Shown here piece by piece: positions 26,368-53,441 of a stretch of DNA of 64,000 bases (the stretch's first letter is position 1; every line of letters starts with the position of its first letter). Source of the DNA: SAR86 cluster bacterium (lineage in GTDB: Bacteria > Pseudomonadota > Gammaproteobacteria > Magnimaribacterales > TMED112); assembly GCA_023703555.1 (NCBI GenBank), contig CP097968.1, positions 842,307 to 906,306 of the forward strand, given 5' to 3'. Under the pieces are notes generated by a model, which saw only the letters and a list, made by a program, of their open reading frames with translations, made no database searches and had not been told where the DNA came from. Made by a program: the position numbers and the translations under genes.

Positions 26368-26443
26368 TGGTGGAGCTATGCGGGATCGAACCGCAGACCT
26401 CCTGCGTGCAAAGCAGGCGCTCTCCCAGCTGAGCTATAGCCCC
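26368..26443 (-). tRNA. tRNA-Ala (anticodon UGC), CCA encoded
   Basis: Reverse complement reads GGGGCTATAGCTCAGCTGGGAGAGCGCCTGCTTTGCACGCAGGAGGTCTGCGGTTCGATCCCGCATAGCTCCACCA. It folds as a perfect cloverleaf with the G3:U70 Ala identity pair and anticodon loop CT-TGC-AC. Confidence 0.97.
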
Positions 26444-27202: not shown

Positions 27203-27607
27203 TTAGTCTACGAAGTGTTTTTCTTTTTCTTCGTTAATAATTTTTACTTCAGCACAATATTCTGCCGTAGGTCTTGAGATAAGACGCTCAAGTCCAATTT
27301 TTTCACCTGTTTCAACACAAAAACCATAGTCTCCTTTTTTGATGCGCATAATAGCTTTATCAATTTTAGGTAAGAGCTTTGACTCTCTTTCAACAATTCT
27401 TAAAAAAAGCATAGAATCAATCTCGTGCTGTGCTCTATCAACTTCATCACTGCAGTCTGGAGGATTACTTAATCTATTTTTTGCATCTTTAATGTGGCCA
27501 AGGGTCTCTAGTTTTAGCTCCTCTAAGAGAATTTTAAAGAACTCTAACTGCTCTTTATTCATATAGTTTTTCTTTGGAGCTTTTAAAATTTTTTCTTTTG
27601 TTAACAT
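27203..27607 (-). CDS. dksA: RNA polymerase-binding transcription factor DksA, C2 (zinc-independent, DksA2-like) variant
   Basis: 134 aa with coiled-coil tip DEVDRAQHE (DxxDxA). The C-terminal region FCVETGEKIGLERLISRPTAEYCAEVK aligns to E. coli [26 protein letters not shown] but keeps only 2 of the 4 Cys (CxxT...CxxV). Confidence 0.85.
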   Translation of the reverse strand: MLTKEKILKAPKKNYMNKEQLEFFKILLEELKLETLGHIKDAKNRLSNPPDCSDEVDRAQHEIDSMLFLRIVERESKLLPKIDKAIMRIKKGDYGFCVETGEKIGLERLISRPTAEYCAEVKIINEEKEKHFVD

Positions 27608-27666: not shown

Positions 27667-28905
27667 CTATTTTTTTACAATTTCGACACGATTTGCAATT
27701 CTTATTCCAATAAATACAAGAATTCCTGCTAATGGAAGCATTAATAACGGTGCTGCATAAAGAATAATTCCAAAAGAGATGATCATATTAAATAAGATTC
27801 CACCAGAGGCATCGCCAGAACGATTAATAAGCGTATCTATAATCACAGTAGATTTATATTTTTCAGTTTTACTTAAAGTTGTATAAGCAACTTCTCTTGC
27901 CGGTTTGTTTAATCCATATTCATAGGGTCTTTGAAATAAAGATATTATGTAAAAAAGAATTATTCCCGATGCTGGCAAAAGTAATTGACTAAAGTGAAGA
28001 GACATAAGAGTAAAAGAAATCGCGAAAAATACGCCATACAAGCCCAATACAAAGCTAAGACCTAGACGTTTGTTGGTCAAAATTAGTATAGAAGATGCCT
28101 GGAAAAAAAGTGTTAAAGGTAAGACGATGTTATCTGCAAATGAAAAAATTTGAACTTTTCTACTAGTGTCTTCTGTGTAAGCATTAATTATTTCAAGATT
28201 AAAAAAATAAAGTGCAGTTGATAAACAAGTCCAAAAAAAACCATAAGAAACTAAATACTGAATATTTCTGTTTAAACGAATCTGCTTAAACTGCTCAAAA
28301 ACCTGTTCCATCAAAATTCCAATGTTTGCTTTAGCTGAAACTTTTTTGGGAGACAATTTTGAGGAAAAGAACATTGCACATCCTAATGAGACTGCTGATA
28401 ATCCAATTGATACCTCTTCGCCCTGGTCATAAAGAAAATTAGTAACTAAAATACCAGCCAACCATCCACCAAAAGTCCCAAAAGCACTAATTATTCCATA
28501 GTTTCTTTTTCCCTCCTCTTTGTCAAAACAATTAATCGTTCTAGCCCAAAAAACTGCAACCACGAAAAAATTAAAGATGTTATACCAGACATAAAAACTT
28601 GCTCTCAATATAAAACTATCAGGATATACCTGATAGCAAAGCAAAAATATAAACATATTGATAAGTAGGAATGAGTAGACATACGTTACAATTCTGTTTT
28701 CTTGAACTTTGGAGACCGTATATGAATAAATTAAGTTTGCTGCCACCATCACCAAAACAATGAGAACTAAATACATAGGCAAATTTTGTGTGCCAATATC
28801 AGCAGCAATAGCACTTCTAAACGGACGTGTTATAAATAAAGAGAATAGAACAAAGAAAAAAAATAGTCCTGAAAAAATGGTATTTTTAGAGAATGCACGA
28901 AACAT
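27667..28905 (-). CDS. Multi-pass transporter, TLC/Npt-like (ATP:ADP antiporter-like MFS)
   Basis: 412 aa with about 11-12 TM segments. ASFYVWYNIFNFFVVAVFWARTN and KPAREVAYTTLSKTEKYKSTVIIDTLINRSGDASGG resemble signature regions of the nucleotide translocase (TLC) family. Transporter is confident. The family and substrate are tentative. Confidence 0.5.
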   Translation of the reverse strand: MFRAFSKNTIFSGLFFFFVLFSLFITRPFRSAIAADIGTQNLPMYLVLIVLVMVAANLIYSYTVSKVQENRIVTYVYSFLLINMFIFLLCYQVYPDSFILRASFYVWYNIFNFFVVAVFWARTINCFDKEEGKRNYGIISAFGTFGGWLAGILVTNFLYDQGEEVSIGLSAVSLGCAMFFSSKLSPKKVSAKANIGILMEQVFEQFKQIRLNRNIQYLVSYGFFWTCLSTALYFFNLEIINAYTEDTSRKVQIFSFADNIVLPLTLFFQASSILILTNKRLGLSFVLGLYGVFFAISFTLMSLHFSQLLLPASGIILFYIISLFQRPYEYGLNKPAREVAYTTLSKTEKYKSTVIIDTLINRSGDASGGILFNMIISFGIILYAAPLLMLPLAGILVFIGIRIANRVEIVKK

Positions 28906-28925
28906 TTTTATTTTCCAATCGAGCC

Positions 28926-29738
28926 TTATTTTTCATCAAGGCTTTGAAACTTTTTAGATAGCTCGTCCTGTTGGCTAAGATTGTAATTAAAATCTATTAA
29001 AGCTCCTTCCCAATCTCCATACACAGGATTCGGAAGCATAAACCAAAAATTTCCCCAGTGAGAATCATATTTTTTAAAGATGTCGTTGCGCTCTATAACA
29101 CTTAAATTATTTTCTTCTGCCCCAACAAAATCACCAAGATTATCTCCAATTATCATTACAATCCTATATTTTTCTGCAATCCTTTGAATTCTTGAGTTTT
29201 TGTTTCGATCCCAGCCTTCTTGCTCATAACGCATTAAAAGTTGATCAATATTTTCTGAAAAAGTAAAGCCTAGCTGCTCAAGATTATTTTTTGTTGCTTC
29301 TTCAATTTCAACCACTCTGTTAGTTACAAAAAAGATTTCTAATCCAAGAGATATTGCATATCTTAGATATTCTTCAGCACCCTCAATATAATCAGCTTTC
29401 TCCTCTTTAGCCCAACTAATCCAGCCATCAGGATATGCAGATCGTTTTTTAATCATACGTGCTTGGTATGCAATATTGTTTAAAACAGTTTGATCAACAT
29501 CTAAGATAACTGCTGGTGGCTTTCCAGAATAATCAGTTTTTTGAACCAAAGCGGCTGTGTGACTTTTATCAGCAATTAAAGTAGGCAGCCTAGACATTGC
29601 AGCCCTATAGATGCTAGTGGTATTTGCCTTATACTCAGCAGAACTTTGTATGTAAAGTGTTCCAAGCAGGGATTCTTCTTCAAGATATTCAGTACTTAAA
29701 ACAAAAGAAAAAAATATTAAAGTTAGAAATCTTCCCAT
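28926..29738 (-). CDS. Class C acid phosphatase / 5'-nucleotidase, e(P4) family (HAD superfamily), secreted
   Basis: 270 aa with a signal peptide and the class C bipartite DDDD motif: AVILDVDQTVLNN ... FFVTNR ... IGDNLGDF. Confidence 0.8.
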   Translation of the reverse strand: MGRFLTLIFFSFVLSTEYLEEESLLGTLYIQSSAEYKANTTSIYRAAMSRLPTLIADKSHTAALVQKTDYSGKPPAVILDVDQTVLNNIAYQARMIKKRSAYPDGWISWAKEEKADYIEGAEEYLRYAISLGLEIFFVTNRVVEIEEATKNNLEQLGFTFSENIDQLLMRYEQEGWDRNKNSRIQRIAEKYRIVMIIGDNLGDFVGAEENNLSVIERNDIFKKYDSHWGNFWFMLPNPVYGDWEGALIDFNYNLSQQDELSKKFQSLDEK

Positions 29739-29772
29739 TTTGGTATTTTACATTGTATTTAACACAAGGTTA

Positions 29773-32349
29773 TTAGTTCCTTAGAAGGGAGAATTGGATA
29801 CTTATCATTCTGCCTCTAGGATCGTGAACCCTTGTATCATAGCTAAAGTCAGGTGCGTCATATAATAAAGGTGGGCCTTCGTCAAAAATGTTAATAATCG
29901 AGAAGGTTGTTTGCAAGGAAAAGTCAGTATTGGTTTTAAAAGCTCTAAAAAAATTATCCAATGGATATTCCAAAAATAAATCATGCACCAAGAAAGCATC
30001 AACTCTATTGGTATATCCAAGAGCTTGTGCGCTATTTGGTATTGATCTTAAATTTTCGTAACTATCAATAAATCTTGTAATCACTCCAGCTCGACTATCA
30101 TTTTTACTCCATACCAATTGGTTATTAATTCTAAATTTTGGCAATGAAAATGTATTATTATCAAAGTTAAATCTACCAACCCTGTTAATCATCACAGTGG
30201 AATCCAAACTCTCCGGAGTGAGGAACTCATCCAATTTCGTTCCTTTGAGGTCTATTGTGAATGTGCTGCTATCAAAGAAGTTAAATTCTTGAAAGTAATT
30301 GAAATCGATACCACTGACTAGTGTACTTGATTCATTAAAATATCTCGTTGTAACTCCAATCAAATCTCCTAAATTATTTCTTGTTATTGATGAGCCGTAG
30401 GGGTCAGATTCTATTAAAGCTTGTGCACTTTCAACCTCTATTCTGTTGGTATAGTCGATCTCCCATAAATCTAAAGAAACTTTTATTTGATTGTCTTGAT
30501 AATAAATGCCAAAGTTCGTATTTTGTGAGACTGATGGCTTTAATTCAGGATTTCCTAATTGGGCTTGCCTAACAAAAACACTTCCTTCAACATCTCTAAC
30601 ACTACCAAGTCTGATTTGACTTGAAAAAAGCTGTCCCATTGAGGGCATTTTAAAAGATTCGCCTTTTGCAATTCTCAGAGAAAGGTTTTCAAACGGCTTA
30701 AAATTTACAGAAAGTTTAGGATTAAATGATGAAAATTTATCTGCATCTTCATACCTTCCAGAAAATACTAAGGTAAATGATTTTGTAAAATCTCTACTTC
30801 CTTCAAAAAATAAAGACGATTTGTTTCTTGATCTTTCTACATTTTGCCCACCGCCCAAGAAAAATAAATCTGCTGTTTTAGTTAGCTTCCCATCTGAATC
30901 AAATTCAACTCTAGATAGTTCGTTAAATCGAATTTTTAGCCTGTCTCGACTTTGTTGAATACCAAAGCCAATATTTAAGTTAAGGTCCTTTTGAAACGTT
31001 CTGGCGATTAAATCAAAAACTGTCAAGCCTCCGGTTTTGTTTGACCTTTCAAAGCCCTTTATATAAGAAATAAGTGATGCTGAATTATTTGCTGGATTAA
31101 AAATGTCCCACTGTTCATTATTGCTTGATCCGCCAGACCCATTCAGTGCACTTAAAAATCTTGAATCAATAATATCTGGTCTTCGATGAAGATTTTCATG
31201 TTGACTATCAGTAACAGAAAATTCAACCTCAAAATCTCTGTAAATTAATTCGTACGCATAACTAAAATGGTGTTGTGAGATATCTTTTGGTGAAAAAGGT
31301 GAGGGGTATCTGCCTCCCAAAGGTCTTCCAAGCCATCTTACTGGAACATTAAATGGACTCCCACCAACACCTGGCATTATTTCTCTTGATAAAAATGGTA
31401 ATGCAGGATATGAGGGTGATTGAGGATTATCAATAACCTTTACATTTGATGCAATTAGCAAAAGAGAATGCTGAAAACTATTTAAGTTTAAATAAAATTT
31501 CTCATGTGACTCGTTATTTACTAAGTTAAATCTAGTGCCATACTGAAACCTGCAACGTCCAGATAAAATACCACCATTTTCAACACAATTTGGATCAGGA
31601 ACTAGGGCCCCTTCTTCATATTCCCCAGCGTAAGGTCCTTCTTCAACTGTATCTGCTTCGGTGAGGACAAACGAGTTCCCTAAGCCACTGACCGCTAATT
31701 CAGCAAGTTTTCTAAAGTCTATAACTGGTAGAGGGCTTCTCTGCAAGTTGTTATAGCCAAAGACAAATTTTAAGTCTTTGAAATTGGCTCCGTATAAGAA
31801 ACCAAAAGTATTATCGTTTTGATCGTAGTTAGCAGTTTGGCGACGTCCAAAATTAACTTTTAGCCCATTGAACTCTTTAAATGTTAAGACGTTGACAACA
31901 CCAGAAACTGCATCTGACCCGTAAGTTGTTGAGGCGCCTTCTTTTAAAATTTGTACTTCGCGTAATGCAACTTCAGGAATGATACCAATATCTATGTAAC
32001 TTCCCCCGTCATCAGAGGGAGTGCCTGCAAAAGTCTGTCTTTTGGAATTGATCAAAACAAGGGTAGATTCTTGTTCAAGACCCCTCAGGTTTATTGATGC
32101 CATTCCCTGATCTTGGCCCCCTAGAGTATTGCTTTGAAAACGCGAACCAGAAGAAGAAGTAATATATTGACTTAGCTCAGCAAAGCTTACCAGACCAAAA
32201 TCTTTAATTTGTTGGGTTTTAATTATTTCTTTTTCAACAGCATTTCCTGTTGTGCTTGTTAATAAACTTCCCGTGGTTACAACTTCTTCAATATCATCTG
32301 AAGAAAAAACATAAAATGAAATAATTAGTAAGACTAACCTCTTAAACAC
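29773..32349 (-). CDS. TonB-dependent receptor
   Basis: Plug and barrel, with TonB box DDIEEVVTTGS. The track start (32397) lies inside a terminator hairpin. I prefer GTG 32349-32347, which gives a clean signal peptide MFKRLVLLIISFYVFSS|DD. Confidence 0.85.
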   Translation of the reverse strand: MFKRLVLLIISFYVFSSDDIEEVVTTGSLLTSTTGNAVEKEIIKTQQIKDFGLVSFAELSQYITSSSGSRFQSNTLGGQDQGMASINLRGLEQESTLVLINSKRQTFAGTPSDDGGSYIDIGIIPEVALREVQILKEGASTTYGSDAVSGVVNVLTFKEFNGLKVNFGRRQTANYDQNDNTFGFLYGANFKDLKFVFGYNNLQRSPLPVIDFRKLAELAVSGLGNSFVLTEADTVEEGPYAGEYEEGALVPDPNCVENGGILSGRCRFQYGTRFNLVNNESHEKFYLNLNSFQHSLLLIASNVKVIDNPQSPSYPALPFLSREIMPGVGGSPFNVPVRWLGRPLGGRYPSPFSPKDISQHHFSYAYELIYRDFEVEFSVTDSQHENLHRRPDIIDSRFLSALNGSGGSSNNEQWDIFNPANNSASLISYIKGFERSNKTGGLTVFDLIARTFQKDLNLNIGFGIQQSRDRLKIRFNELSRVEFDSDGKLTKTADLFFLGGGQNVERSRNKSSLFFEGSRDFTKSFTLVFSGRYEDADKFSSFNPKLSVNFKPFENLSLRIAKGESFKMPSMGQLFSSQIRLGSVRDVEGSVFVRQAQLGNPELKPSVSQNTNFGIYYQDNQIKVSLDLWEIDYTNRIEVESAQALIESDPYGSSITRNNLGDLIGVTTRYFNESSTLVSGIDFNYFQEFNFFDSSTFTIDLKGTKLDEFLTPESLDSTVMINRVGRFNFDNNTFSLPKFRINNQLVWSKNDSRAGVITRFIDSYENLRSIPNSAQALGYTNRVDAFLVHDLFLEYPLDNFFRAFKTNTDFSLQTTFSIINIFDEGPPLLYDAPDFSYDTRVHDPRGRMISIQFSLLRN

Positions 32350-32365
32350 GAAATAGATTATATAT

Positions 32366-32395
32366 AAAAAAAGGGCAGGCCCAACGACCTGCCCC
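32366..32395 (-). terminator. Rho-independent terminator after the His-rich TBDR gene
   Basis: Minus strand reads GGGGCAGG-tcgttggg-CCTGCCC followed by TTTTTT(a). The stem is 7 bp of G/C, 23-52 nt downstream of the stop at 32418. Confidence 0.7.
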
Positions 32396-32417
32396 ATAAA
32401 AAGGAGTTTAATTTAAT

Positions 32418-34649
32418 TTAAAACTCTAAATTAAACCTAAGACCAAAATTAACCCCTGGAAGTGGCACCTCATCTTTGACATAGGAAGCATGATTTCTTG
32501 CAACCTCATCTAAAAGATTATTGGCAAAAAATGAAACACCAAGATTAAATTGACTAGATAGCCCAATCTCTTTTTTAACCAAAAGATTCAACATCTTGAA
32601 TCCTTCTGTTTCAGTTTCCCCATCTCCAATTATAGTTTGTCGATCAACATCTTTGAGAGTGAGTCTCATTCTGTAATCACTAGCCCTGTAAGATAATGTG
32701 TACAAACTTCTTGCTGGAACCAATCTAGGAACATTTTCTCCGTTACTGAATTCACCATTGACTGAATCTCTTCCATAGCTAAGCACAAATTCACCAGTAT
32801 CCGTAATGAATCTTCTACCAAATTCAAATTCATAGCCGTTAAATTCAGCATCCTGTTGAAGAAAATCCGCGTGGATCAAATCACCATGCTCTTCATGCTC
32901 ATCGTGATCTTCATCACCATGGTCCTCATCACCATGGTCCTCATCATGATGCTCTTCTAACTCATCTTGAAGATAAATATAATCGTCAATGTTATTTTGG
33001 AATAAAGTTAATTGACCAAAATAATCTCCATCATCAAAAAATAACGATCCCTCGAAGTTATTGGCTCTCTCTGAAGATAAGTTGATGTCACCTGTTTCAA
33101 ACCTGCCACGCGCTAAGTGTGGTCCATTCATTGCCATCGCAGTACCAGATGGAGCACTAGCAACACTTGAAAAACTTATATCGAAACTAACTGCATCAGT
33201 AAGCTGTCGACCAAGGCTTGCAGAGAAACTTAGATCGTCAAAATCTTTATCAAAATATTCAACTTCCATTTCTTCATGCTCATCATGATCCTCATCACCA
33301 TGATCCTCATCATCATGATCATCATGTCCTTCCTCTTCATGACCTTCTGTAATTGAGCCTTGTCTATTAACCTGATCATAGCGCAAACCTAAATCTAAGC
33401 TATAACCTGATAAATCAAGACCAGCATAATAGCCAAAATTTAAACTCTCGCTTTGCATTGGATCCATAAATGCTTCGTGTCCAGCAATGGATTCATCCAT
33501 GGAAAGAAAGTTCACCATTAATTTCTGAGATGATATGAGTCCTGATGTTGGAAGATCAAAGATAGCACCAAATTCTTGAGCAATGTTGGTAAAGACAGTT
33601 GGTCCCTCTTCATGACCATGATCGTCATGTTCTTCTTCATCATGATCACCTTCCTCTTCAGCATGCTGCTCTTGAAATGTATAATCAGTATCTCTAAAAA
33701 AGTAATCAACTTTATTTACAATAGAGCTATTTAAGACTAAACCACCACTGACATTTACAGCCTGTGAATCAGTGAAGGCATATATTCTTTCACCCTCGTG
33801 CTCATCGTGTCCTTCCTCTTCTTCACCCTCTTCTTCACTGTGTTCATCACCATGAAAAGGTATTCCATACTCTGTCTCTTGATCTTCAAGAGAGACACCA
33901 AGATAGCCCCAATCACCTGTAACTGAGAGGCCAACCCTTGAGGTTGTTGAACCAAAATCTGAATTTGCCAAAGTCTCAGCATCCATTTCATCATGATCCC
34001 CTTCTTCTTCATGCTCATCTTCCGAGTGAAGAATTGCACCATTTGGAATTGCATAATTTCCGAACTGGGAATCTTTGTAAGCCAAAGACAAATTTACACC
34101 TGCAACATTTTTTTGGTACGCAAAATTTTCAGCATTTCCCCAATTGACACTCTGTTTCTCAAAACCTAGGCTTCCAACTTGTTCCTCAAAATCAGTTTTT
34201 GCAATGGTGTTATCAATTACATTAATAACTCCTCCAATAGATCCTTTTGCATAAAGCAATGACGACGGGCCACGAATAATTTCAACTTGTGACACATTGT
34301 TAAGATCCACCTCATTTAAGTGATCCGCTCCCATGCCTGCGACGTCAGCGACACTAAGACCATTTCTAAGAATCTTTACCCTTCCATCTAAAAGCCCACG
34401 GATTGCTGGCTGACCAACAACTGCACCATAGTCCACTGAGGATACACCTAGCAATTCATCAAAGGATTCTCCAAGACTTTGTGTCCCTGAGTCCTCTAAA
34501 TCCTCTCCACTTACCACATGTATTGGGTCACCAATTTCTGATAATTGTCTATCATCACTTGTTAATGACGAAACAACTACCACCTCTTCAACTTCTTGTG
34601 ATACCAAGAATGACGATATAAAAATTAAACTTATTAAGATTTTTTTCAT
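32418..34649 (-). CDS. TonB-dependent receptor with five His/Asp/Glu-rich inserts (ZnuD-like metal receptor candidate)
   Basis: 743 aa with a signal peptide, TonB box EVEEVVVVSS, a plug (IRGPSSLLYAKGSIGGVINV) and a C-terminal ...RFNLEF. A strong AGGAGG lies 7 nt upstream. The five acidic His clusters are described in the findings. Confidence 0.9.
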   Translation of the reverse strand: MKKILISLIFISSFLVSQEVEEVVVVSSLTSDDRQLSEIGDPIHVVSGEDLEDSGTQSLGESFDELLGVSSVDYGAVVGQPAIRGLLDGRVKILRNGLSVADVAGMGADHLNEVDLNNVSQVEIIRGPSSLLYAKGSIGGVINVIDNTIAKTDFEEQVGSLGFEKQSVNWGNAENFAYQKNVAGVNLSLAYKDSQFGNYAIPNGAILHSEDEHEEEGDHDEMDAETLANSDFGSTTSRVGLSVTGDWGYLGVSLEDQETEYGIPFHGDEHSEEEGEEEEGHDEHEGERIYAFTDSQAVNVSGGLVLNSSIVNKVDYFFRDTDYTFQEQHAEEEGDHDEEEHDDHGHEEGPTVFTNIAQEFGAIFDLPTSGLISSQKLMVNFLSMDESIAGHEAFMDPMQSESLNFGYYAGLDLSGYSLDLGLRYDQVNRQGSITEGHEEEGHDDHDDEDHGDEDHDEHEEMEVEYFDKDFDDLSFSASLGRQLTDAVSFDISFSSVASAPSGTAMAMNGPHLARGRFETGDINLSSERANNFEGSLFFDDGDYFGQLTLFQNNIDDYIYLQDELEEHHDEDHGDEDHGDEDHDEHEEHGDLIHADFLQQDAEFNGYEFEFGRRFITDTGEFVLSYGRDSVNGEFSNGENVPRLVPARSLYTLSYRASDYRMRLTLKDVDRQTIIGDGETETEGFKMLNLLVKKEIGLSSQFNLGVSFFANNLLDEVARNHASYVKDEVPLPGVNFGLRFNLEF

Positions 34650-34691: not shown

Positions 34692-34955
34692 TTATTTTTT
34701 CGGAGGTGCTCGAGATAAAGAATCTCTAAGAATTTTGTCGTGAGTAAGTTGTCTTAGTGAATTACTAACTACACTTGCAATAGGGTTTTTGTATATATTC
34801 TTATTTATAAAAAAATTTGTAGAATTTTCACTCTCACAAACGTGACAAGATATTACCTCAACCTCTTCGTGAAAATGATCGTGGCTAATTTCATGTAAGG
34901 GAAAGCTCACTCCCAAAATGAAAATTAGAAATAACTCAAAATACTTTTTATTCAT
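34692..34955 (-). CDS. Small exported/membrane-anchored protein with His cluster and CxxC
   Basis: 87 aa with an N-terminal hydrophobic segment, then HEISHDHFHEE and CHVCESE. It lies 42 nt upstream of the His-rich TBDR on the same strand. No obvious SD sequence. Confidence 0.5.
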   Translation of the reverse strand: MNKKYFELFLIFILGVSFPLHEISHDHFHEEVEVISCHVCESENSTNFFINKNIYKNPIASVVSNSLRQLTHDKILRDSLSRAPPKK

Positions 34956-35033: not shown

Positions 35034-36395
35034 TTATTTAGATAGTTCAATTAATTGGTTTGGCTTATTTTTATGTTTTTTTAATTTAAATTCATCATAT
35101 AGATTTCCTGTAGCATCAAAGGCTTGGAATCGTAAATCATTACCTGATATCTTGATTATCTGGTACAGCTGTGTATCTTCTAAAATTTTTTTTGCGTAGT
35201 TGCCTTTCGTAAATTCATACATTTTCGGGCCACTTACCGATACAACATAGACTGTCCCTACATCGGGATCATAAGCTTGTTGGTAACCATTAGGCACATT
35301 TTCAACCTTAGCTCCGGCAAGGTCTCCAGTTCGAGAATATACATGGTCATGACCGTTGAGCACTAGATCAACTTTAAATTCATCAAACAATGGCTTCCAT
35401 AGTTTCCTTAAATGAGGATTGTCACGATCGGTTCCAGGTGAATAAATAGGATGATGAAAAGTAACTACTGTCCATTTATTCGGATTTTTCTCTAAAACAG
35501 ATCTAATCCAAGGAACTTGCTCCTCTTGCGCAATATTTGAGTCGAGAGAAATGAATCTTACTCCTTGATAATCCAAGTAATAAACTGTCTCTTTCAAACG
35601 CTCATCTGGTATATTTTGAATAGGAAAGACAAATTGTGGTTGCCAGTGAGCACTTATTTCAGGAGCAGTTCTCTTAGCTTCTGAATATTTTACATACTCA
35701 TGATTTCCAGGAGTAGCTAACAGAGGTATTGTTGCATTTACCCAGTCTGGGCCTTCGTGCCACTCACCCCAATTGGAATCCATATCTTTAATATCCACAA
35801 GATCTCCAGCATGAAGTATAAAAGACGCTCTCGGAGCATCACGAAAAGCCTCCCTAAATACTCTTGACCAGTGAGTTCTTACTTCGTTCTGAGCATCACC
35901 AAAATAGATAAAACTAAAGGGTTCTGGGTAAGAGCTTGCTGTCTTGAAATGGAAATATTCACTCCAATTTACTCCATCTCCCACTCTATATACATAAAGG
36001 GTATTTGGATTCAAGCTCCTTATGGTAATACTATGGTAATGAGCTTGATTTATATCACTCTGAAAAAATAAAGTTTTTGCCTCGAATAAATCTGGGTTTA
36101 AGTCGCGCCCACTGGCATTTGCAACTGCTATTTGGACAAAAGCTTTTTTTACAGAAGTATCTGTTCTCCATGTGATGGATTGCGTTGTTGCTGGATTATC
36201 TTCCCAAGTCAGAACTATACGATCCGGCATTGGAGTTGGTTCATACATTTCTACAGATGAATATTTAACGATACCCGAATTATCATGAGCTAATGCATAG
36301 AGGCCTAAAAATAAACCTAGGAGTACTGCTCTTGCAAACTTAAACATTGTTTTTAACAAGTTGATTAAAGATGTATTTAATATGTTTTGGCTCAT
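35034..36395 (-). CDS. Secreted metallophosphoesterase, purple-acid-phosphatase-like
   Basis: Calcineurin-like motifs GDAQN, HAGDLVD, GNHEY, HHPIYS and GHDHVYSR, with an N-terminal PAP-type beta domain. An alternative start at 36347 (MFKFARAVLLGL...) gives a cleaner signal peptide. Confidence 0.8.
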   Translation of the reverse strand: MSQNILNTSLINLLKTMFKFARAVLLGLFLGLYALAHDNSGIVKYSSVEMYEPTPMPDRIVLTWEDNPATTQSITWRTDTSVKKAFVQIAVANASGRDLNPDLFEAKTLFFQSDINQAHYHSITIRSLNPNTLYVYRVGDGVNWSEYFHFKTASSYPEPFSFIYFGDAQNEVRTHWSRVFREAFRDAPRASFILHAGDLVDIKDMDSNWGEWHEGPDWVNATIPLLATPGNHEYVKYSEAKRTAPEISAHWQPQFVFPIQNIPDERLKETVYYLDYQGVRFISLDSNIAQEEQVPWIRSVLEKNPNKWTVVTFHHPIYSPGTDRDNPHLRKLWKPLFDEFKVDLVLNGHDHVYSRTGDLAGAKVENVPNGYQQAYDPDVGTVYVVSVSGPKMYEFTKGNYAKKILEDTQLYQIIKISGNDLRFQAFDATGNLYDEFKLKKHKNKPNQLIELSK

Positions 36396-36448: not shown

Positions 36449-36525
<77 letters not shown>

Positions 36526-36570: not shown

Positions 36571-37215
36571 CTACTTATCCCATATCACTTTATAAATTAA
36601 ATAACCTAATAATCCTCCCATAATCTGAAAAATAATAAATAATGGAGCATCATTAAGATTAATGCCGGCAAATGTATCTGAAAAAATTCTCCCAAATGTA
36701 ACTGCAGGATTAGCAAAAGAAGTTGATGCTGTAAACCAATAGGCAGCACCAATATAAGAAGCTACCATTATTGGAACTTTTTTAGCATCTGAAGCAAAGA
36801 TAATCATTATTAGGCCGGCAGTAGCGATTAGCTCTGAAAACCACAAATTTGAACCTGTTCTTATTTTTGTTGATAATTCAATCAATGGTAAATTGAACAT
36901 TAAATTAGCAAGTACTGCCCCTAATAATCCTCCCAAACATTGAACTGCAGCGTAACTAATAAAAGCTGGAAATTTTAATTCTCCTCTAATGTAGCTAACT
37001 AAGGACACAACAGGATTAAAATGAGCGCTCAACGGAGCAAAAATTGTAATCAAAAAGTATAAACCCCAAAACGTAGCTAAGGAATTTGCTAAAAGTGCAA
37101 TACCATCGTTTCCATCCGATAAATTTTGCCCCATTATGCCTGAACCCACTACAACACAAACCAATAAAGCTGTGCCTGTAAATTCAGCAAATATTTTATT
37201 CTTAAATTTACCCAT
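36571..37215 (-). CDS. MIP-family channel (aquaglyceroporin, AqpS-like arsenite channel candidate)
   Basis: 214 aa with six TM segments and two half-helix motifs, HFNPVVSL (NPV) and NPAVTFGR (NPA). Overlaps arsC by 8 nt. Confidence 0.8.
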   Translation of the reverse strand: MGKFKNKIFAEFTGTALLVCVVVGSGIMGQNLSDGNDGIALLANSLATFWGLYFLITIFAPLSAHFNPVVSLVSYIRGELKFPAFISYAAVQCLGGLLGAVLANLMFNLPLIELSTKIRTGSNLWFSELIATAGLIMIIFASDAKKVPIMVASYIGAAYWFTASTSFANPAVTFGRIFSDTFAGINLNDAPLFIIFQIMGGLLGYLIYKVIWDK

Positions 37216-37594
37216 TCAATAGTTCAGTATTAATTTTCATCTCTATTAAGTCTCTAATATTATCAAAATCATCATCGTTCATATGTTTTGGATCAGGTAT
37301 CTTCCAATCTAAAGTTTTGGTATTTGGAAAAAAAGGACATTCATCGCCACAACCCATTGTTACAACATAATCAAATCTTTCGTTAGAAAAATTTGTGACA
37401 TTCTTTGGTTGAATTTCGTCAAATATAATACCAATCCTTTTGAGAGAATCTATAGCTTTTGGATTAACAGTTTTAGCAGGCTGAGATCCAGCTGATTTTG
37501 CAAAAATTTTATCACCATAAATTCTATTACTAATTTGTTCAGCTAATTGACTTCTGCATGCATTCTCAACACATACAAACAATACATTTAGCAT
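37208..37594 (-). CDS. arsC: Arsenate reductase, LMW-PTPase family
   Basis: 128 aa with VLFVCVENACRSQLAE (the CX5R P-loop) and TMGCGDECP (distal Cys pair). Confidence 0.85.
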   Translation of the reverse strand: MLNVLFVCVENACRSQLAEQISNRIYGDKIFAKSAGSQPAKTVNPKAIDSLKRIGIIFDEIQPKNVTNFSNERFDYVVTMGCGDECPFFPNTKTLDWKIPDPKHMNDDDFDNIRDLIEMKINTELLNG

Positions 37595-37595
37595 A

Positions 37596-40115
37596 CTAAA
37601 AGCTGTATTTTACACCTAAAGATATTGATGAAGCAGTGGAATAGCTTTCGAAAACTTCATTACCTTGTAGAGCTTCATAGGGGTCTTCTAATAAATTTCT
37701 CAGCTTTAAAGTGATGTCAAGCGTACCATCTAAAGCGTAGTAAGTTCTATTATAAACTACGTCCAACTGAGCTGGTAAATCTTCCATAACATTGGGGATA
37801 GTATCAACTCCAAGCTCTCTTATTCTATTGCCAACATCATTGTAAACAACGCTAAACCTTGAATCATCAGCTCCATAAAAACCAAACTGAAGATTAAAAA
37901 TATCATCAGGCTGCCCAACAAGAGGTCTATCGTCATAAGAGGATAAAGTTATGTATTCAGGATTGGTTACTGCATTTGAATCTGTATAGGTATAGTTCAC
38001 TTTTCCAAAAAAATCATACCCAGATATTAATTCGCCAAATTGTTTTTGAAATTCAAATTCTGCTCCCTCAAGAGTTGCAGATGCAGCATTTCTGTAACTT
38101 ACGTAAGAGTCGGTTGCTGCTGCTTCTAGAACTTGTTCAATTGGGTTTATAAAGCTCTTCTCAAAATAGGAGATCGTTAAAAACTCATCGAAGCCAAAGT
38201 AATACTCATATCGCAAATCAATATTTTCAATTTCCGCTGAAGTTAATTCTGCAAATCCTCTTTCAAACCTATCCGTTTCGAAGTTAACAAATAATACTGG
38301 AGACATTTCTCTAAATTGTGGTCTAGAAACTGTTTCACTAAAACCAATCCTTACTTGCATATTTTCTGCCAACTCATAAGTTAAAGTTAATGCGGGCAAT
38401 AATTTATCCAACTCATCAACAGATTGAATATTTGTTTGATTGCCAAAAAATTGTTGAGTATTTGTTTCGATAAAAGATTCTTCATTTCGAGCTCCGATGC
38501 TTAAACTCAATTGATCTGAAATATCTGTTTCCAGTGAAAAATAGTAGGCATCTATAGTCATATCACCAGTGTAATCATCGGTATTTAGCGATAATTCTTG
38601 CAACACCAAACCAGTACGATCATATCTAAAGTTTTGTGGATGCATTATTGAGTTAATTGGCTGTCTTCTAAATTCTTGATCAGCAAATAAAGCCCCATTA
38701 GTAAAATCTGGCAAGAATGCATATCTTTTCACGTCTGTTTGTCGGTTTTTTTCTGAATGAATTAAACCAAATTTGAAATCTATTAATAAATCCCCAGTTT
38801 CGATAGGATAGTAAAAATCTACTGCCGCCTCGGATGAGTCATCATTTAACCAGGAAAAATTTGTGTAATTACTATCTTGTCTTCGGGAAAATTCATATGC
38901 ACCATTGTTAAATTCATAAAAATGTTCTCTTTCAAATGGTGATTCTCTTTTACCAGTTGAACCATTCAATCTCCAATCAATGGATAACCCGTTTAATAAG
39001 TCGTGTTTACCTGACAATGTTACAGTTTTAATCTCTCGTTCAACCCATTCAGATTTTGTTCTACGCTCATCAAAATCTGCTTCAACATTCCTACCCTCAC
39101 TAATTGTTGTCCTACTATCTGTTTTTCTTACAATTAATCCTGTGAACTGTAGATAATTAAAATCATCAATATCCCACCCAAGAGTACTAAGAAAATTTGT
39201 ATCTATTTGATAATTTGCTTTTTTTACTGCGTAGTTATTTCTTCTAACTAAATTTTCTCCTGACCCACTTGACCATTCTGATCGAAGAATATCAGGTTGA
39301 TTATCTTTACTTGAATCGTAACCTGCACTAATTAATAGACCCAATCTGCCCAGCTCGTTTAAGTCATAAGCATTGCCATAACTGACATCAAAACCGAAAT
39401 CTGGATATAGTTCGGTTTTAAGTGGTTGCCAAGTACCAGTAAATCCTTGAGCAGCATATTGAATATCGTAATATGATGAAGTCGCTAGAGAAATGAAATC
39501 CGAATTTGCATAAAGTGGTGCTAGTGATGCAGGCAAGTCTCTGTCACCCATATCAAAACCTGTCCAATCATTATCGTATTGCGGCATCAAATCTACTTCC
39601 TCGCCCGTGGCTAAAGAATCGTAAGAAGTAGAAAAACTAATTTCAGTAAATTCTTGGTCTGGTATCAATTTTGTTCTCATATCGATCACTCCGCCACCAA
39701 ATTCACCTGGATATTGAGCGGAGTATGTTTTTTGTACTAAAACGGAGTCCAATATTGAAGTTGGAAAAATATCAAAGGGGACAACTCTTTTTAAAGGTTC
39801 GGGGCTAGGCAATAAAACACCATTCAACAACGCTGAGGAATATCTCTCACCTAATCCTCTAACATAAACATATTTTCCTTTTACTAAACTTAAACCCGTA
39901 ATTCTTTTTAATGCATCAGCAGCATCGCTATCTCCAGCAACACTAATGTCTTCTGCATCAATAACATTAGAAATTTCACTAGTATCTCTTTTCTCATCTG
40001 GAATAAAACTTTCTACAACCCTAACCTCTTCAACACTATCACTGGCCACATCTGTTTCTTGGGCATAAGAAATTATTGATATTAAAAGTGATGATATTGT
40101 GAACAAAATTCTCAT
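37596..40115 (-). CDS. TonB-dependent receptor
   Basis: 839 aa with a signal peptide ...SYAQE, TonB box VEEVRVVES, plug YVRGLGERYSSALLNG...PGEFGGGVIDMRTK and a C-terminal GVKYSF. Confidence 0.9.
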   Translation of the reverse strand: MRILFTISSLLISIISYAQETDVASDSVEEVRVVESFIPDEKRDTSEISNVIDAEDISVAGDSDAADALKRITGLSLVKGKYVYVRGLGERYSSALLNGVLLPSPEPLKRVVPFDIFPTSILDSVLVQKTYSAQYPGEFGGGVIDMRTKLIPDQEFTEISFSTSYDSLATGEEVDLMPQYDNDWTGFDMGDRDLPASLAPLYANSDFISLATSSYYDIQYAAQGFTGTWQPLKTELYPDFGFDVSYGNAYDLNELGRLGLLISAGYDSSKDNQPDILRSEWSSGSGENLVRRNNYAVKKANYQIDTNFLSTLGWDIDDFNYLQFTGLIVRKTDSRTTISEGRNVEADFDERRTKSEWVEREIKTVTLSGKHDLLNGLSIDWRLNGSTGKRESPFEREHFYEFNNGAYEFSRRQDSNYTNFSWLNDDSSEAAVDFYYPIETGDLLIDFKFGLIHSEKNRQTDVKRYAFLPDFTNGALFADQEFRRQPINSIMHPQNFRYDRTGLVLQELSLNTDDYTGDMTIDAYYFSLETDISDQLSLSIGARNEESFIETNTQQFFGNQTNIQSVDELDKLLPALTLTYELAENMQVRIGFSETVSRPQFREMSPVLFVNFETDRFERGFAELTSAEIENIDLRYEYYFGFDEFLTISYFEKSFINPIEQVLEAAATDSYVSYRNAASATLEGAEFEFQKQFGELISGYDFFGKVNYTYTDSNAVTNPEYITLSSYDDRPLVGQPDDIFNLQFGFYGADDSRFSVVYNDVGNRIRELGVDTIPNVMEDLPAQLDVVYNRTYYALDGTLDITLKLRNLLEDPYEALQGNEVFESYSTASSISLGVKYSF

Positions 40116-40167
40116 ATAGACTCCTACGAGATTAAAGTTAACTCTAAATTAATACTTTAAAGATTCC

Positions 40168-40188
40168 TTTTTGTAACAAATTTGTAAC
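40168..40188 (-). promoter_or_regulatory. Direct repeat GTTACAAAT-tt-GTTACAAAA upstream of the TBDR gene (candidate -35 element or operator)
   Basis: Minus strand reads aaaGTTACAAATTTGTTACAAAAAgg, 53-73 nt upstream of the ATG at 40115 and immediately after the terminator T-tract. TATTAA lies 16 nt downstream of TTACAA. The same TGTTACAAAA word occurs upstream of the lipoprotein gene. Confidence 0.3.
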
Positions 40189-40191
40189 TTT

Positions 40192-40218
40192 AAAAAAAGC
40201 TACCCTCGAAAGGGTAGC
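40192..40218 (-). terminator. Rho-independent terminator after the lipoprotein gene
   Basis: Minus strand reads GCTACCCT-ttcg-AGGGTAGC followed by TTTTTTT. It is an 8-bp perfect stem with a TTCG tetraloop, 21 nt after the stop at 40239. Confidence 0.85.
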
Positions 40219-40238
40219 TTTAATCATCAATATTTTTA

Positions 40239-43181
40239 CTATTCTGATGAACTAGCTGGCTTAAATGCCCAATTATCAGTCCAATCGGCATCTGCTGAAG
40301 GAACAGCTCCGACATGTCCTGTTACCTCGAAGAAGTCTCCTGCAACAGTAACTGGGGTTAAAGCTGACTCCGTAGCACCATTAACATATCCTGCTAATGA
40401 AGCGCCTCCTGCTGAAGCAGTATTAGTATTTGAGGATAATAAAGCTTCAATTTGAGCAGCAGTAGGGCCACTAGTATCTTCCTGTGCTAACGTTGCACAA
40501 GCAAACAAGTTACCATCATAGTCATGACCTTCTCCGGCAGTACCGTCACCATTAAAGTCATAAGTTTCATCATTATCTATATCCCAACATGTGCTTGCTC
40601 CTTCATCAGCAACCACTGAGTTATAAATATTCAGACCTGTACCCTCTCTAAGTAGTACTGCCTGCCCATCTCTACTAACAATTGTTAAGTTAGCAAATGT
40701 TGGTAATGATCTTGGCTCTCTATCCATATCTGAACCGTAGTTATCAGCTTCGATAGATCTGTCAACATCAAATGTTTGACCTTGATTTTGCCAAACAATT
40801 GCATGCTGTACATTACCTCGCCAACCATCAGTCCAATCTATAGAGTCATCCGAAGCACCCATTACAAGTAAGTGCTTAGCATTAACAGTACCTCCAAAGA
40901 ACTCTACACCGTCATCAGATGTATTGTAGGTCTGAATATAATTTAGTTCAGTTAGGTTACCCACAGCTTGGAATGCAATACCATTCAATTCATCTTCTGA
41001 GTTAAATAGTCTTCCAGCATGTTTTAATACAAGGTAGAAAATATTTCCACTATTGTCAGCATCGTCAATACCACCGTAAGAGCCTGAACCTCCTTCACCA
41101 TCTGCAGTACAATTTGCTGTACCAACATCTGAAAGATTACAAGCTGTTTGACTAGCTAGACCATTAATAACCAAACCACCCCAGTCGGATGCCACACTTG
41201 ACATATCTGCAGCTGTATCTCTAACTTCTCTACCTGAAGTCATAGTGACGGGAGCACCAGGTGCACCATTAATCATTATTTTAGAATGAATTGGGACAAG
41301 AACGGCATCAAAATCTGTTATTGCACCTTCACCAGCATAACTGTCACTGTATAGGGTAACACCAGGATCAATTTGCAAGTACTTAGCACCAGACCCATCT
41401 GCAGCCCCAGTTCCAACTTTTACTTGTTTAACCATCAAGTATGGTAAGCCACCACCGACAAGTCTTATATTCTTGTCTTCGGATTGAGCTGAAACAAGCT
41501 CACATGCCGCACCAGCACCATCTTTCATATTTCCAAGTGTCGTTCCATATGGACACTCAAATGAATCCATATGAAGACCAAAAGTCCAGCCTTTGGTCCA
41601 ATCGTTAGCATCACTTTCAACGCCACCAATAAAAGAGGCATCTTCTAGATTTGCATCTTGTGCACTAGCAGTCGCTAATGAATATCCTGAAGCAAGTGGG
41701 TGAGTAATATAAGCTGCATTTCTCATACTTCCATGTAAGCCAGAAGCACCAAAATGGGCGCCATTATTTCCTGTTAAGATATAGTCGCTTACACTAAAAG
41801 CATTTGGAAAATCTGCTTCGCCAACTTCTTCGTCTTGCACTAAGCCCCCTTGGCCAATTGCGCCACACTTAATGGAGTCAAAAAGAGTTCCAGCAAAGCT
41901 TAAACCGTTTTCTTGAGCCATAAAGCGATATGTTTCATCATCATCGACATCAACACAACCTGAACTACCTTCTGCGTTTCCTGATACTATTGAATTCAAA
42001 AGTTTTACACCAGTTCCCTCTCTAAGTTGTAGGGTATCGCCACCATAATCTTGGACAAAAGTAATATTTGCCAGAGCTGGGAATGATCTTGGCGATCTAT
42101 CCATATCACTGCCATAATTATCAGCTTCGATAACATTGTCTTTAGATCTTGCTGCATCTGTTACAGGGAAAAGTGTTTGTATAACCACACCGTATTGTGC
42201 AAAACCTCTCCATCCGTCTGTCCAGTCAACAGAGTCATCTGAAGCACCGGTGACAACAAAATGCTTCATACCTACAGTACCACCAAAAAATTCAATCCCA
42301 TCGTCTGAACCATTATGTACCTGAATGTAGTTAACAGATGTTCCAGAACCAACTGCTTGAAAAGCAACGCCATTCAATTCATCGTCATTAGAGAACCTAT
42401 AGCCTGCATATTTAACTTGCATGTAATTGATTGAACCAGAATTATCTTCATCGTCTGTGCCGCCGTAGTACCCTGAGTCTCCTTCACCTTCTGCAGTACA
42501 TGCAGCTGTTCCAAGGTCTGCTTCATTACAATTATTTTGAGCTGCGAGACCAGATATAACTAAACCACCCCATTGTGCTTCAGCACCATCTGTTACTTCA
42601 CCTGTTAAATCACTTACACCGGTCATGATGACAGGAGCTGAGGCAGTACCATTCACATTCAACTGAGAATTTGGACTAACAACCAAGTAATCCACATCAG
42701 AATCAGAGACTGAATCGCCGAGAGATGCAACAAAGCTTGTTGCGTCTTCAAATCCGGCACCTGCGGTACCAACTATTGTTGTACCTGCTTCAATTGTCAA
42801 TGATCCGTTATCTCCCGCACTTGAGCCATCGGCGTTAATCCCTGCACCAACAAATACTGCTCCATTTAAAGCATAAATTGCATCAGAGCTTATTGTTACA
42901 TCAGATGCTATTGGGGCTGATGATGGGAAAGTAAGAATACACACAGATTTACTTTGACCATCAAAGTCAGTAGCAACAATGCCTGAATCTTCACCAGCAG
43001 CACATGCAGAAGGTGCAGGTGTTGGTTCTGGTGTTGGTTCTGGCGTTGGAGCCGGCGTTGGCGCTGGCGTTGGAGCCGGCGTTGGAGCAGGAGTAGGAGC
43101 TGGCTCACTTGAACCACCACCACAAGCTGCAACAAATAAAGTCGTTATTACAATCGAAATAGGATTAAAAAAATTTTTCAT
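40239..43181 (-). CDS. Large lipoprotein of unknown function with Pro/Thr linker and two tandem copies of a roughly 450-aa module (beta-helix-like)
   Basis: 980 aa with lipobox LFVAAC (Cys20), a GGGSSE(PAPTP)n linker, then two homologous halves (about aa 76-535 and 540-975). Details are in the findings. Confidence 0.85.
43011..43103 (-). repeat. 12-nt-period tandem repeat encoding the (A/E)PTP linker of the lipoprotein
   Basis: Plus strand reads ggtgttggttct ggtgttggttct ggcgttggagcc ggcgttggcgct ggcgttggagcc ggcgttggagca..., encoding [31 protein letters not shown]. Confidence 0.9.
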
Positions 43182-49318: not shown

Positions 49319-50597
49319 AAATTCTCAAAATTTATTTAACAAATCTCAACTTCATATAGCTGGTGGTGTAAATTCACCAGTAAGGGCCTTTAAAAACGTA
49401 GGTGGAACACCAATTTTTTTTAAAAAGTCTAGAGATTGTTACTTGTACGATGAAGATGGTAATAAATACTTAGATTTTGTTGGATCTTGGGGCCCTATGA
49501 TCCTTGGACACTCGAATGAAGGAATTATAAAAGCGATTAGAAAACAAACTTCAAAAGCAATAAGCTTCGGTGCTCCAACAAAAAATGAATTAGAAATTGC
49601 AAAATTAATCAAATCTTTTTTCCCGAGCATGGAGAAGATCAGAATGGTGAACTCTGGCACTGAAGCGACTATGAGTTGTATAAGATTAGCCAGAGGGTTT
49701 ACAGGCAAAACCAAGATTTTAAAATTTTCAGGTTGTTACCATGGTCATGTTGATTCACTTCTTGTCAAAGCAGGATCAGGATTAGCCACACTCGGAATAC
49801 CTGATTCTCCTGGCATTCCTGAAGAACTTTCAAAACTGACTGTAAGCATTCCATACAATGATATTACCGCCTTAGAGAGAGCTTTTAATAAACACGGTAA
49901 TGATATTGCCGCAGTTATTGTAGAACCTATTGCAGGAAATATGGGTTTCATTGAACCATCAAAAGAATTTATTAAAAGCCTCTTCAACCTTAAGGATCAG
50001 CATGAATCTTTATTGATTTTTGATGAAGTTATGACTGGGTTTAGAGTTGCGCAAGGCGGCGCTCAGGAGTTATTTAAAGTAAAACCAGATTTAACGGCTT
50101 TGGGTAAAATTGTTGGTGGTGGATTGCCTGTTGGTGTCTATGGCGGAAAGACAGAAATTATGAGTATGATTGCTCCAGATGGACCTGTCTATCAAGCTGG
50201 TACACTTTCTGGTAATCCTGTAGCAGTAAGTGCTGGCACTGCTTTACTTAAACAACTTAAGGATGCAAATATTTATTTAGAATTGGATAGAGTAAGTAAA
50301 CTTTTTTTAAAAGGTGTTGCAGCTGCAGCTAAAAAAAATCTTATCCCATTCTCATATTCTGTTAGGGGTGGGATGTTTGGGTTCTTCTTTACAAATGATC
50401 TTCCACAAAACTTCGAAGACGTTAAAAATTCGAATCTTGAGTTATTCAAAAGGTTTTTTCAGGGTATGTTAGAAGAGAAGGTCTACTTACCACCCTCTGC
50501 ATTTGAAAGTTGTTTTATTTCTACAAAGCATTCTGAAGAAGTGATTCTAAAGGCTGTAAAATCAGCTGAAAAAGTTTTCTCCAAGATAAAATTATGA
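49308..50597 (+). CDS. hemL: Glutamate-1-semialdehyde 2,1-aminomutase
   Basis: 429 aa with GGVNSPVRAF, MVNSGTEATM, FDEVMTGFR and LGKIVGGGLPVG (PLP Lys). Confidence 0.95.
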   Translation: MKTKNSQNLFNKSQLHIAGGVNSPVRAFKNVGGTPIFFKKSRDCYLYDEDGNKYLDFVGSWGPMILGHSNEGIIKAIRKQTSKAISFGAPTKNELEIAKLIKSFFPSMEKIRMVNSGTEATMSCIRLARGFTGKTKILKFSGCYHGHVDSLLVKAGSGLATLGIPDSPGIPEELSKLTVSIPYNDITALERAFNKHGNDIAAVIVEPIAGNMGFIEPSKEFIKSLFNLKDQHESLLIFDEVMTGFRVAQGGAQELFKVKPDLTALGKIVGGGLPVGVYGGKTEIMSMIAPDGPVYQAGTLSGNPVAVSAGTALLKQLKDANIYLELDRVSKLFLKGVAAAAKKNLIPFSYSVRGGMFGFFFTNDLPQNFEDVKNSNLELFKRFFQGMLEEKVYLPPSAFESCFISTKHSEEVILKAVKSAEKVFSKIKL

Positions 50598-52800: not shown

Positions 52801-53441
52801 ATCTTCCAAATTATATTGCTGTTGAAGGGCCAATAGGTGTTGGCAAAACTACTCTAGCAAAAAAAATAGCATTAAAATTTTCTTATGAATTATGTCTTGA
52901 AGACTCAGATGAAAATCCTTTTTTGGGAAATTTTTATAAAGACAGTAAAAAGTATGCTTTTGCCACGCAAATACATTTCGTAATGCAAAGGTCTAGACAG
53001 ATTAACAAATATTTTTCTGATGAACTTATTGATAGACGTATAGTATCTGACTTTATATTTCATAAAGAATCCATATTTGCTGAACTTAATCTAACAAATG
53101 AAGAATACAAGATTTTTGAAATTATAAAATCTAAATTTTATGAATCATTTCCAAAACCTGATTTGCTGATTTACTTACAAGCTTCGCCCAAAAAAGTAAT
53201 GGAGAGGGTAAAGAAAAGAGCCAGAACTTATGAAGAAAATATAGATTTAGAATACCTGGAAAAGATATGTCAAACATATTCGGAATTTTTCTTTAATTAT
53301 TCTGAGTCTCCACTACTAGTTTTGAATGTTGATGAGGTTGACTTTGTTGACAATCAGCGTGATCTAAAAATTGTTTTGGATTCAATTTCTAAGGATGTAA
53401 TTGGAAAAGAATTTATTAATCTTAGACCAAGCTTCTTCTAG
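52797..53441 (+). CDS. Deoxynucleoside kinase
   Basis: 214 aa with P-loop VEGPIGVGKTTLAKK and the dNK-family layout (ENPFL, SDFIF, basic lid KKRARTYE). Confidence 0.75.
   Translation: MNLPNYIAVEGPIGVGKTTLAKKIALKFSYELCLEDSDENPFLGNFYKDSKKYAFATQIHFVMQRSRQINKYFSDELIDRRIVSDFIFHKESIFAELNLTNEEYKIFEIIKSKFYESFPKPDLLIYLQASPKKVMERVKKRARTYEENIDLEYLEKICQTYSEFFFNYSESPLLVLNVDEVDFVDNQRDLKIVLDSISKDVIGKEFINLRPSFF

Follow-up and report, generated by a model that had tools for sequence, protein, structure and literature searches.

A conserved SAR86 operon of TonB-dependent receptor, class C acid phosphatase and NTT-like carrier: a candidate system for scavenging dissolved phosphoesters

Introduction

In Haemophilus influenzae, NAD uptake proceeds through the class C acid phosphatase e(P4), acting with NadN, and then through PnuC. 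Other Gram-negative bacteria pair genes for TonB-dependent receptors (TBDRs) with genes for periplasmic phosphatases or phytases in order to use organic phosphorus. Carriers of the NTT/TLC type, finally, are most familiar from intracellular parasites and from plastids. Here we describe a locus that can be compared with each of these systems. It lies in a 64,000-nucleotide stretch of contig CP097968.1 (the window) from a SAR86 bacterium (Magnimaribacterales; G+C content ~34%). Three genes stand there in a row, all on the minus strand, and encode a TBDR, a class C acid phosphatase and a carrier with 12 transmembrane (TM) helices.

We read these genes as a SAR86-specific operon that scavenges dissolved phosphoesters, most plausibly nucleotides, and whose carrier takes up a product of the hydrolysis. 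We put the probability of this reading at roughly 0.55. A sequence-only reading of the window had already proposed a self-contained import pathway for nucleotides, NAD-type cofactors or other phosphoesters. The anatomy that it described is real: an outer-membrane TBDR, a periplasmic class C phosphatase and a 12-TM (6+6) carrier. Every motif that it quoted is also present, DVDQTVLNN and GDNLGDF in the phosphatase and FYVWYNIFNFFVVAVFW (aa 104-120) and KYKSTVIIDTLINRSGDASGG (aa 349-369) in the carrier. Its functional claims fared less evenly and are taken up below with the evidence that bears on them.

Results

Gene order and transcription unit

The genes for the TBDR (29773-32349), the acid phosphatase (28926-29738) and the carrier (27667-28905) are separated by 34 nt (29739-29772) and 20 nt (28906-28925), in agreement with the coordinates and gaps first reported. 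Both gaps are AT-rich and free of hairpins. An intrinsic terminator precedes the three-gene unit and none lies within it. This terminator, on the same strand, consists of a hairpin (32372-32395; 10-bp stem with 7 GC pairs) and a T-run, and it ends the gene of an upstream His-rich TBDR. Just past it comes a TATAAT hexamer (32357-32362, minus strand), as had been noticed earlier; this candidate operon promoter is a consensus match only and stands 7 nt upstream of the GTG start codon of the TBDR.

We place the start of the TBDR at GTG 32349, giving a protein of 858 aa, because the earliest in-frame ATG of the reading frame, at 32397, falls within the terminator hairpin. Translation from the GTG yields MFKRLVLLIISFYVFS/SDDIEEVVTTGS, in which we recognize a signal peptide and, after it, a TonB-box-like stretch (DDIEEVVTTGS). 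In most of the related lineages that we printed out, a hairpin occupies the same position, GC-rich but of differing stem sequence; loci L025, L028 and L029 are the exceptions. A terminator that keeps its position between two TBDR genes supports a separate transcription unit beginning at the second of them. In L001, L005 and L025, too, the start codon of the second TBDR has a hexamer resembling a -10 element 7-9 nt ahead of it, making four divergent lineages with the window. A hexamer so close to the start suggests a leaderless or near-leaderless transcript, yet AT-rich DNA often holds such hexamers.

Receptor and phosphatase

The first protein of the unit has the parts expected of a TBDR: Pfam matches to the plug (8.4e-10) and the barrel (1.1e-29) behind a signal peptide. 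Against the NCBIfam models for siderophore, haem and B12 receptors it gave sub-threshold matches only, and its best solved relative aligns chiefly in the plug. We considered a siderophore TBDR working with a permease of the major facilitator superfamily (MFS), the phosphatase being a passenger. This arrangement was ruled out by the translational coupling of the phosphatase gene or genes between the other two.

The second protein (270 aa; HAD-IIIB) matches PF03767 at 1e-36, with 126.7 bits against a cut-off of 27. Its best solved relatives are class C enzymes, namely those of Bacillus anthracis (2i33, 1e-35) and Pasteurella (3pct) and the e(P4) of Haemophilus (3ocy, 1e-21). The catalytic aspartates D80, D82, D199 and D203 are invariant among 19 aligned sequences, and the motifs DVDQT and GDNLGDF give the class C signature. 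The sequence-only reading had gone further and identified the enzyme with e(P4). The class assignment stands, but the narrower identity does not: the protein scores 178.5 bits against the e(P4) equivalog model TIGR01533, under its cut-off of 216.05, and there is no lipobox cysteine in the N-terminal 30 residues of the phosphatase or of its SAR86 orthologues, which have a plain signal peptide instead. Judged by its sequence, the enzyme is a soluble periplasmic class C phosphatase, not an e(P4)-type lipoprotein.

Class C phosphatases are typically 5'/3'-nucleotidases. In e(P4), three residues form what we take to be an aromatic clamp that binds the nucleotide; the positions aligned with them in the SAR86 enzyme are Y/W/Y and are conserved. 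In one lineage outside SAR86, an acid phosphatase, an alkaline phosphatase and an inositol-monophosphatase-family gene stand side by side. A survey of acid phosphatases (PMC6438641) reports class C genes of the SAR86 type in abundance from an estuary.

Conservation across SAR86

We scanned one genome per species for relatives of the carrier and obtained 79 loci, nearly all from SAR86 or marine Gammaproteobacteria metagenome-assembled genomes and including the cultured strain HIMB1674. An acid phosphatase gene lies directly upstream of the carrier gene in 28 of the 79. In these 28, dksA follows the carrier without exception and a TBDR gene precedes the phosphatase in 23, so the three-gene order first seen in a single genome is conserved in its relatives. 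The same order appears on metagenomic contigs, and the closest relatives of the window proteins (93-96% identity) all come from metagenomes.

The junctions are tight. They range from -11 to +45 nt, with overlapping stop and start codons frequent (many overlaps of 4 nt, some of 11 nt) and four exceptions. In the exceptions a 120-aa hydrophobic open reading frame on the opposite strand separates the alkaline phosphatase gene from the carrier gene and breaks the tight operon; this frame is conserved in one subclade (L005 7589-7951, minus strand, with equivalents in L018, L022, L024 and L048). The alkaline phosphatase itself is of the PhoA type (NF007810, 2.5e-54). Its gene lies between the acid phosphatase and carrier genes in 12 of the 28 loci and overlaps the acid phosphatase gene by 4-8 nt, and its copies are 56-68% identical between subclades.

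The arrangement is kept across SAR86 lineages whose proteins are only ~50% identical. In a neighbour-joining tree of the carrier, both branches of the deepest split in this ~50% identity clade include it, and it is therefore old; from the sequences, it is probably ancestral to the clade. The conserved tight linkage, together with the inserted PhoA-type gene, speaks for a function in taking up and hydrolysing phosphoesters.

The carrier and its relation to NTT proteins

The carrier (412 aa) belongs to a SAR86-wide subfamily that current libraries do not recognize. It has no Pfam match even at E<=10 and no NCBIfam match at E<=0.01, and thus falls outside PF03219 and TIGR00769. Searched alone with phmmer, it matches one PDB sequence, chloroplast NTT1 (9.4e-5, residues 314-394). 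A first profile, built from 31 SAR86 homologues, drew a superfamily of 5073 cluster representatives, mostly full-length (410-490 aa), with 529 below 1e-30. A second alignment combined the window carrier with 40 relatives from the wider family (22-49% identical to it, most ~25%). Compared with solved structures, this 41-member alignment matches Chlamydia pneumoniae NTT1 (8e-23) and Arabidopsis NTT1 (2e-21) over near full length, and the next structure is OxlT, an MFS protein, at 7.5e-6. When the 41 members were scanned singly, 37 matched MFS_1 and 24 matched TLC and TIGR00769.

The predicted fold points in the same direction. An AlphaFold model of the carrier (pLDDT 87.8, pTM 0.88) has 6+6 TM helices with a linker helix. 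Its top three Foldseek matches are AtNTT1 and CpNTT1, at TM-scores of 0.73-0.81, with AtNTT1 best (0.79-0.81); LacY, NupG/YegT and other MFS proteins rank behind. The carrier does not, then, cluster with unrelated sugar or drug carriers of the MFS. The earlier description of a TLC-like transporter is right in that NTT/TLC proteins are nearest by both profile and fold, and too strong in that no PF03219 or TIGR00769 match exists and identity to NTT1 is 12-15%. On these profiles and this model, the carrier is a distant NTT/TLC homologue within the MFS, outside the NTT/TLC family as now defined. At 12-15% identity the relationship says nothing firm about what it carries.

Given this kinship, the carrier might be a genuine importer of the NTT type that moves nucleotides or NAD intact, coupled to protons or to phosphate exchange, with the TBDR as supplier and the phosphatase as a parallel or overflow route. 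The margin by which NTT1 leads in the profile search and its first place in the fold search speak for such an importer. So do the motifs that the two share in TM1, in TM4 and just past it, and in TM10-11. Annotation pipelines have named some carrier relatives "ATP:ADP antiporter" or "Npt1/Npt2 family", and NTT homologues are widespread in free-living bacteria (PMC5381601). Against it, besides the low identity and the missing family matches, the protein is ~90 residues shorter, and one lysine of the NTT KxKxK stretch is a threonine in the SAR86 carrier clade. A co-translated periplasmic phosphatase would, moreover, destroy the importer's substrate, and orthologues of the carrier sit in aromatic or lipid catabolic clusters. 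We consider an intact-nucleotide importer unlikely, and slightly more so the full scenario in which free-living SAR86 takes nucleotides or NAD directly from seawater through an NTT-type carrier fed by a dedicated TBDR.

In each of the three loci examined (L096, 5001-7661; L097, 3662-6353; L098, 5001-7453), distant kin of the carrier outside SAR86 (~25% identity) adjoin a gene for a PF01370 epimerase/dehydratase 377-394 aa long. The association does not apply to SAR86.

Weighing the scavenging reading

In a phosphoester-scavenging operon, the TBDR would bring a phosphoester over the outer membrane. The class C phosphatase, an enzyme whose family is established by sequence, would strip the phosphate in the periplasm from a substrate that we infer, and in many sister lineages the co-encoded PhoA-type alkaline phosphatase would act likewise. 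The co-translated NTT-like MFS carrier would then move the product over the inner membrane. Its cargo would most likely be the dephosphorylated organic moiety, of nucleoside type; the phosphate set free is a less likely one. Among possible substrates we favour nucleotides, because class C enzymes are typically nucleotidases, because the Y/W/Y residues aligned with the e(P4) clamp are conserved, and because the cell encodes a deoxynucleoside kinase.

That kinase is one of two "salvage kinases" (50594-51580 and 52797-53441) that the sequence-only reading had enlisted in support. One is a PfkB-family kinase and the other a PF01712 deoxynucleoside kinase; their genes are on the opposite strand, at a distance of ~20 kb, and are surrounded by housekeeping genes (an aminotransferase, PcnB and TsaE). 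Distance, strand and neighbours rule them out as parts of the system, and they lend the operon no support. The predicted PF01712 gene does show that the cell has nucleoside salvage.

Several observations weigh against a phosphoester-scavenging operon, and the first concern the carrier. In the remaining SAR86 lineages its gene occupies unrelated places, at least five contexts overall. In one (L039, 5795-8233) it lies 10 nt past the gene for a Rieske ring-hydroxylating oxygenase alpha-subunit, with genes for an acyl-CoA-ligase-type enzyme and a GST in the same row. In strain HIMB1674 (L066, 6905-8483) it shares 8 nt with a Rieske ferredoxin gene, and an enoyl-CoA hydratase gene comes next. Elsewhere it follows tolB-pal-cpoB, and there are two minor contexts. 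Genomes rich in Rieske genes may produce two such independent links by chance; alternatively, the links may hint at what the carrier moves. The relocated proteins have hardly changed: 117 of the 137 columns that are at least 95% conserved in phosphatase-linked carriers are unchanged in relocated members of the same clade, among them every conserved charged or polar residue. Two deeper clades keep 83 and 70 of the 137, including nearly all the charged positions.

The same carrier, with its conserved polar residues, thus occurs without the phosphatase; it is therefore not dependent on that enzyme, and its substrate is not tied to it and could be unrelated. Among the loci kept there is one carrier match per assembly. 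The simplest reading of these sequences is a single iso-functional core SAR86 carrier whose gene was relocated during SAR86 evolution, and its substrate must therefore serve all SAR86. The carrier would be a core SAR86 permease that the operon recruited, not one unique to the pathway, and the proposal of a carrier dedicated to a nucleotide or NAD pathway does not survive this comparison.

The same facts invite a stronger conclusion: that adjacency is incidental, the carrier being a SAR86 permease of general use whose organic substrate is unrelated, for example an aromatic or lipid-derived acid, with only the TBDR and the phosphatase or phosphatases forming a functional pair. In favour of this are the single carrier match per assembly among the loci kept, the five or more contexts in which the conserved polar residues are unchanged, and the tight coupling to Rieske-type genes in two contexts independent of each other. 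Chance adjacency, on the other hand, accords poorly with the overlaps or 5-45 nt gaps that join carrier and phosphatase across lineages diverged to ~50% identity, with a linkage that persists despite the insertion of an alkaline phosphatase gene, and with an arrangement that seems ancestral to its clade. We regard mere adjacency as improbable.

There are two further points against the phosphoester-scavenging operon. The TBDR and the carrier both lack a substrate-diagnostic family match in Pfam, NCBIfam and solved structures. In the contexts examined outside SAR86, this class C phosphatase has no linkage to a TBDR or to the carrier described here.

The phosphatases themselves suit more than one purpose. 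A second, broad-specificity phosphatase that recurs in the operon fits a general harvest of phosphomonoesters or phosphate equally well. The claim of a nucleotide-specific route is weakened, as the PhoA-type gene in the operon of 12 lineages argues for general phosphoester hydrolysis instead. With two broad-specificity phosphatases whose sole common product is phosphate, phosphate uptake accounts for them at least as well as nucleoside uptake does. On this account the carrier might import the inorganic phosphate that hydrolysis frees in the periplasm, making the operon a system for phosphorus acquisition and nothing else. Among the products of the clustered class C, PhoA-type and purple-acid-type enzymes, phosphate is also the only one that all three share. 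Most SAR86 have Pit only, Pst being patchy (PMC11582366), and a structure of AtNTT1 contains both ADP and Pi (title of entry 9j3m), so the fold can handle phosphate. The carrier, however, has no similarity to known phosphate carriers, and other lineages show its orthologues in translational coupling with Rieske proteins.

Nor does regulation speak for phosphate. We found no Pho box near the locus; the window holds 4 matches with at most 3 mismatches, where 6.1 are expected, to a gammaproteobacterial consensus from which a SAR86 box may differ. Matches to the Zur-box consensus are no more numerous than in shuffled sequence, and none falls at the locus. Rfam at gathering thresholds returned two tRNAs only and no riboswitch, so that no TPP, FMN or cobalamin element names a vitamin substrate. 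With no Pho box, Zur box or riboswitch, phosphate regulation of the operon is therefore unsupported, which also counts against the operon as a phosphoester scavenger. We give phosphate import by the carrier a low probability and retain the phosphoester-scavenging operon, with a hydrolysis product, most likely of nucleoside type, as cargo, as our preferred reading.

Neighbouring genes

The operon is part of a wider block with the same order in relatives: a purple-acid-phosphatase-like gene, a small His/Cys-rich gene, a TBDR gene with His/Asp/Glu-rich inserts, the operon, and dksA. In the window the block is headed by a secreted purple-acid-phosphatase-like metallophosphatase (35034-36395, minus strand; Pfam Pur_ac_phosph_N 3e-19, Metallophos 1.5e-18). 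There follow a conserved His/Cys-rich open reading frame of 87 aa (34692-34955, minus strand) and the His-rich TBDR (32418-34649, minus strand), which has long His/Asp/Glu-rich inserts and is conserved as a neighbour in relatives. The best family match of this upstream receptor is ZnuD, a zinc-piracy receptor, at a sub-threshold 181 bits against a cut-off of 950. In relatives, a CIA30-domain gene is also found in this upstream region. The His-rich TBDR and its neighbours may be a metal (Zn) supply module beside metallophosphatases.

Downstream of the carrier, DksA (27203-27607, minus strand) has a promoter-like site of its own, TTGAAA-16-TAAAAT at 27647-27620. A CxxT-x17-CxxV pattern replaces the four-Cys zinc finger, making the protein a 2-Cys, DksA2-like type (TIGR02420, 108.3 against a cut-off of 115.5). 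The His-rich TBDR and the 2-Cys DksA led us to consider a zinc-limitation island; it is disfavoured by the zinc-dependent PhoA-type enzyme within the operon in many lineages.

Two tRNA genes (26371-26443 and 36452-36525, both minus strand) bracket the block, from the purple-acid-phosphatase-like gene through a DUF2798 gene. Just upstream (36571-43181, minus strand) stand, in a row, a MIP-family channel, a sub-threshold homologue of LMW-PTP/ArsC-like arsenate reductases, a TBDR in which the plug domain alone was detected, and a 980-aa protein without a Pfam match. These may be an arsenate-handling set beside phosphorus genes.

Discussion

The operon of the abundant SAR86 group connects a single TBDR with a defined reaction in the periplasm, the hydrolysis of phosphomonoesters, and with a specific carrier in the inner membrane. 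It offers a testable route for the turnover of dissolved organic phosphorus or nucleotides. Cell-surface 5'-nucleotidase activity has long been measured in seawater, and the operon is a candidate molecular basis for it. The carrier adds a core SAR86 subfamily, overlooked by current family libraries, that forms a bridge between generic MFS proteins and NTT translocators; its substrate, once found, would reveal the role of NTT-like carriers in free-living bacteria. Should uptake of intact nucleotides or NAD prove true, the SAR86-wide subfamily would count as a functionally new branch within the NTT superfamily, engaged in direct nucleotide piracy from the dissolved pool.

Neither the operon nor the carrier is mentioned in the SAR86 isolate paper and its supplements (PMC11582366), and a marine phosphorus-stress paper does not mention the operon. 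In its logic the operon is akin to e(P4)/PnuC and to TBDR-phosphatase pairs; it is built from other parts, a soluble class C enzyme with a TBDR and an NTT-like MFS carrier.

By analogy with the H. influenzae route, a periplasmic class C phosphatase would ready a nucleotide for an inner-membrane carrier, and the catalytic aspartates and aligned aromatics are conserved. The differences lie in the enzyme and its partners. Whereas e(P4) is an outer-membrane lipoprotein, the SAR86 enzyme has no lipobox cysteine and falls below the TIGR01533 cut-off. SAR86 would also use a TBDR instead of a porin and an MFS carrier instead of PnuC, with the genes all in one operon. The pairs of TBDRs with phosphatases or phytases in other Gram-negatives likewise couple a TonB-dependent gate in the outer membrane to phosphoester hydrolysis in the periplasm. 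SAR86 differs from them in its HAD class C enzyme, with or without PhoA, and in a dedicated NTT-like carrier in the inner membrane.

With the NTT/TLC translocators (PF03219, TIGR00769, TC 2.A.12; AtNTT1 9j3j/l/m and C. pneumoniae NTT1 9j3n/o) the SAR86 carrier shares a 12-TM MFS fold, NTT1 being its best match. It departs from them in length (412 aa against ~500 aa), in its 12-15% identity and in matching no family model, and it is known here from sequence and a model. It comes, moreover, from a free-living planktonic host, in an operon with periplasmic phosphatases and with orthologues in catabolic contexts. Major, Embley and Williams (2017; PMC5381601) assembled a set of recognizable NTT proteins, many of which are fusions with HEAT or cNBD domains. 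Like the homologues from free-living bacteria in that collection, the SAR86 carriers extend NTT-related proteins beyond intracellular parasites and plastids. Unlike them, they form a more divergent, single-domain subfamily, which is absent from that study.

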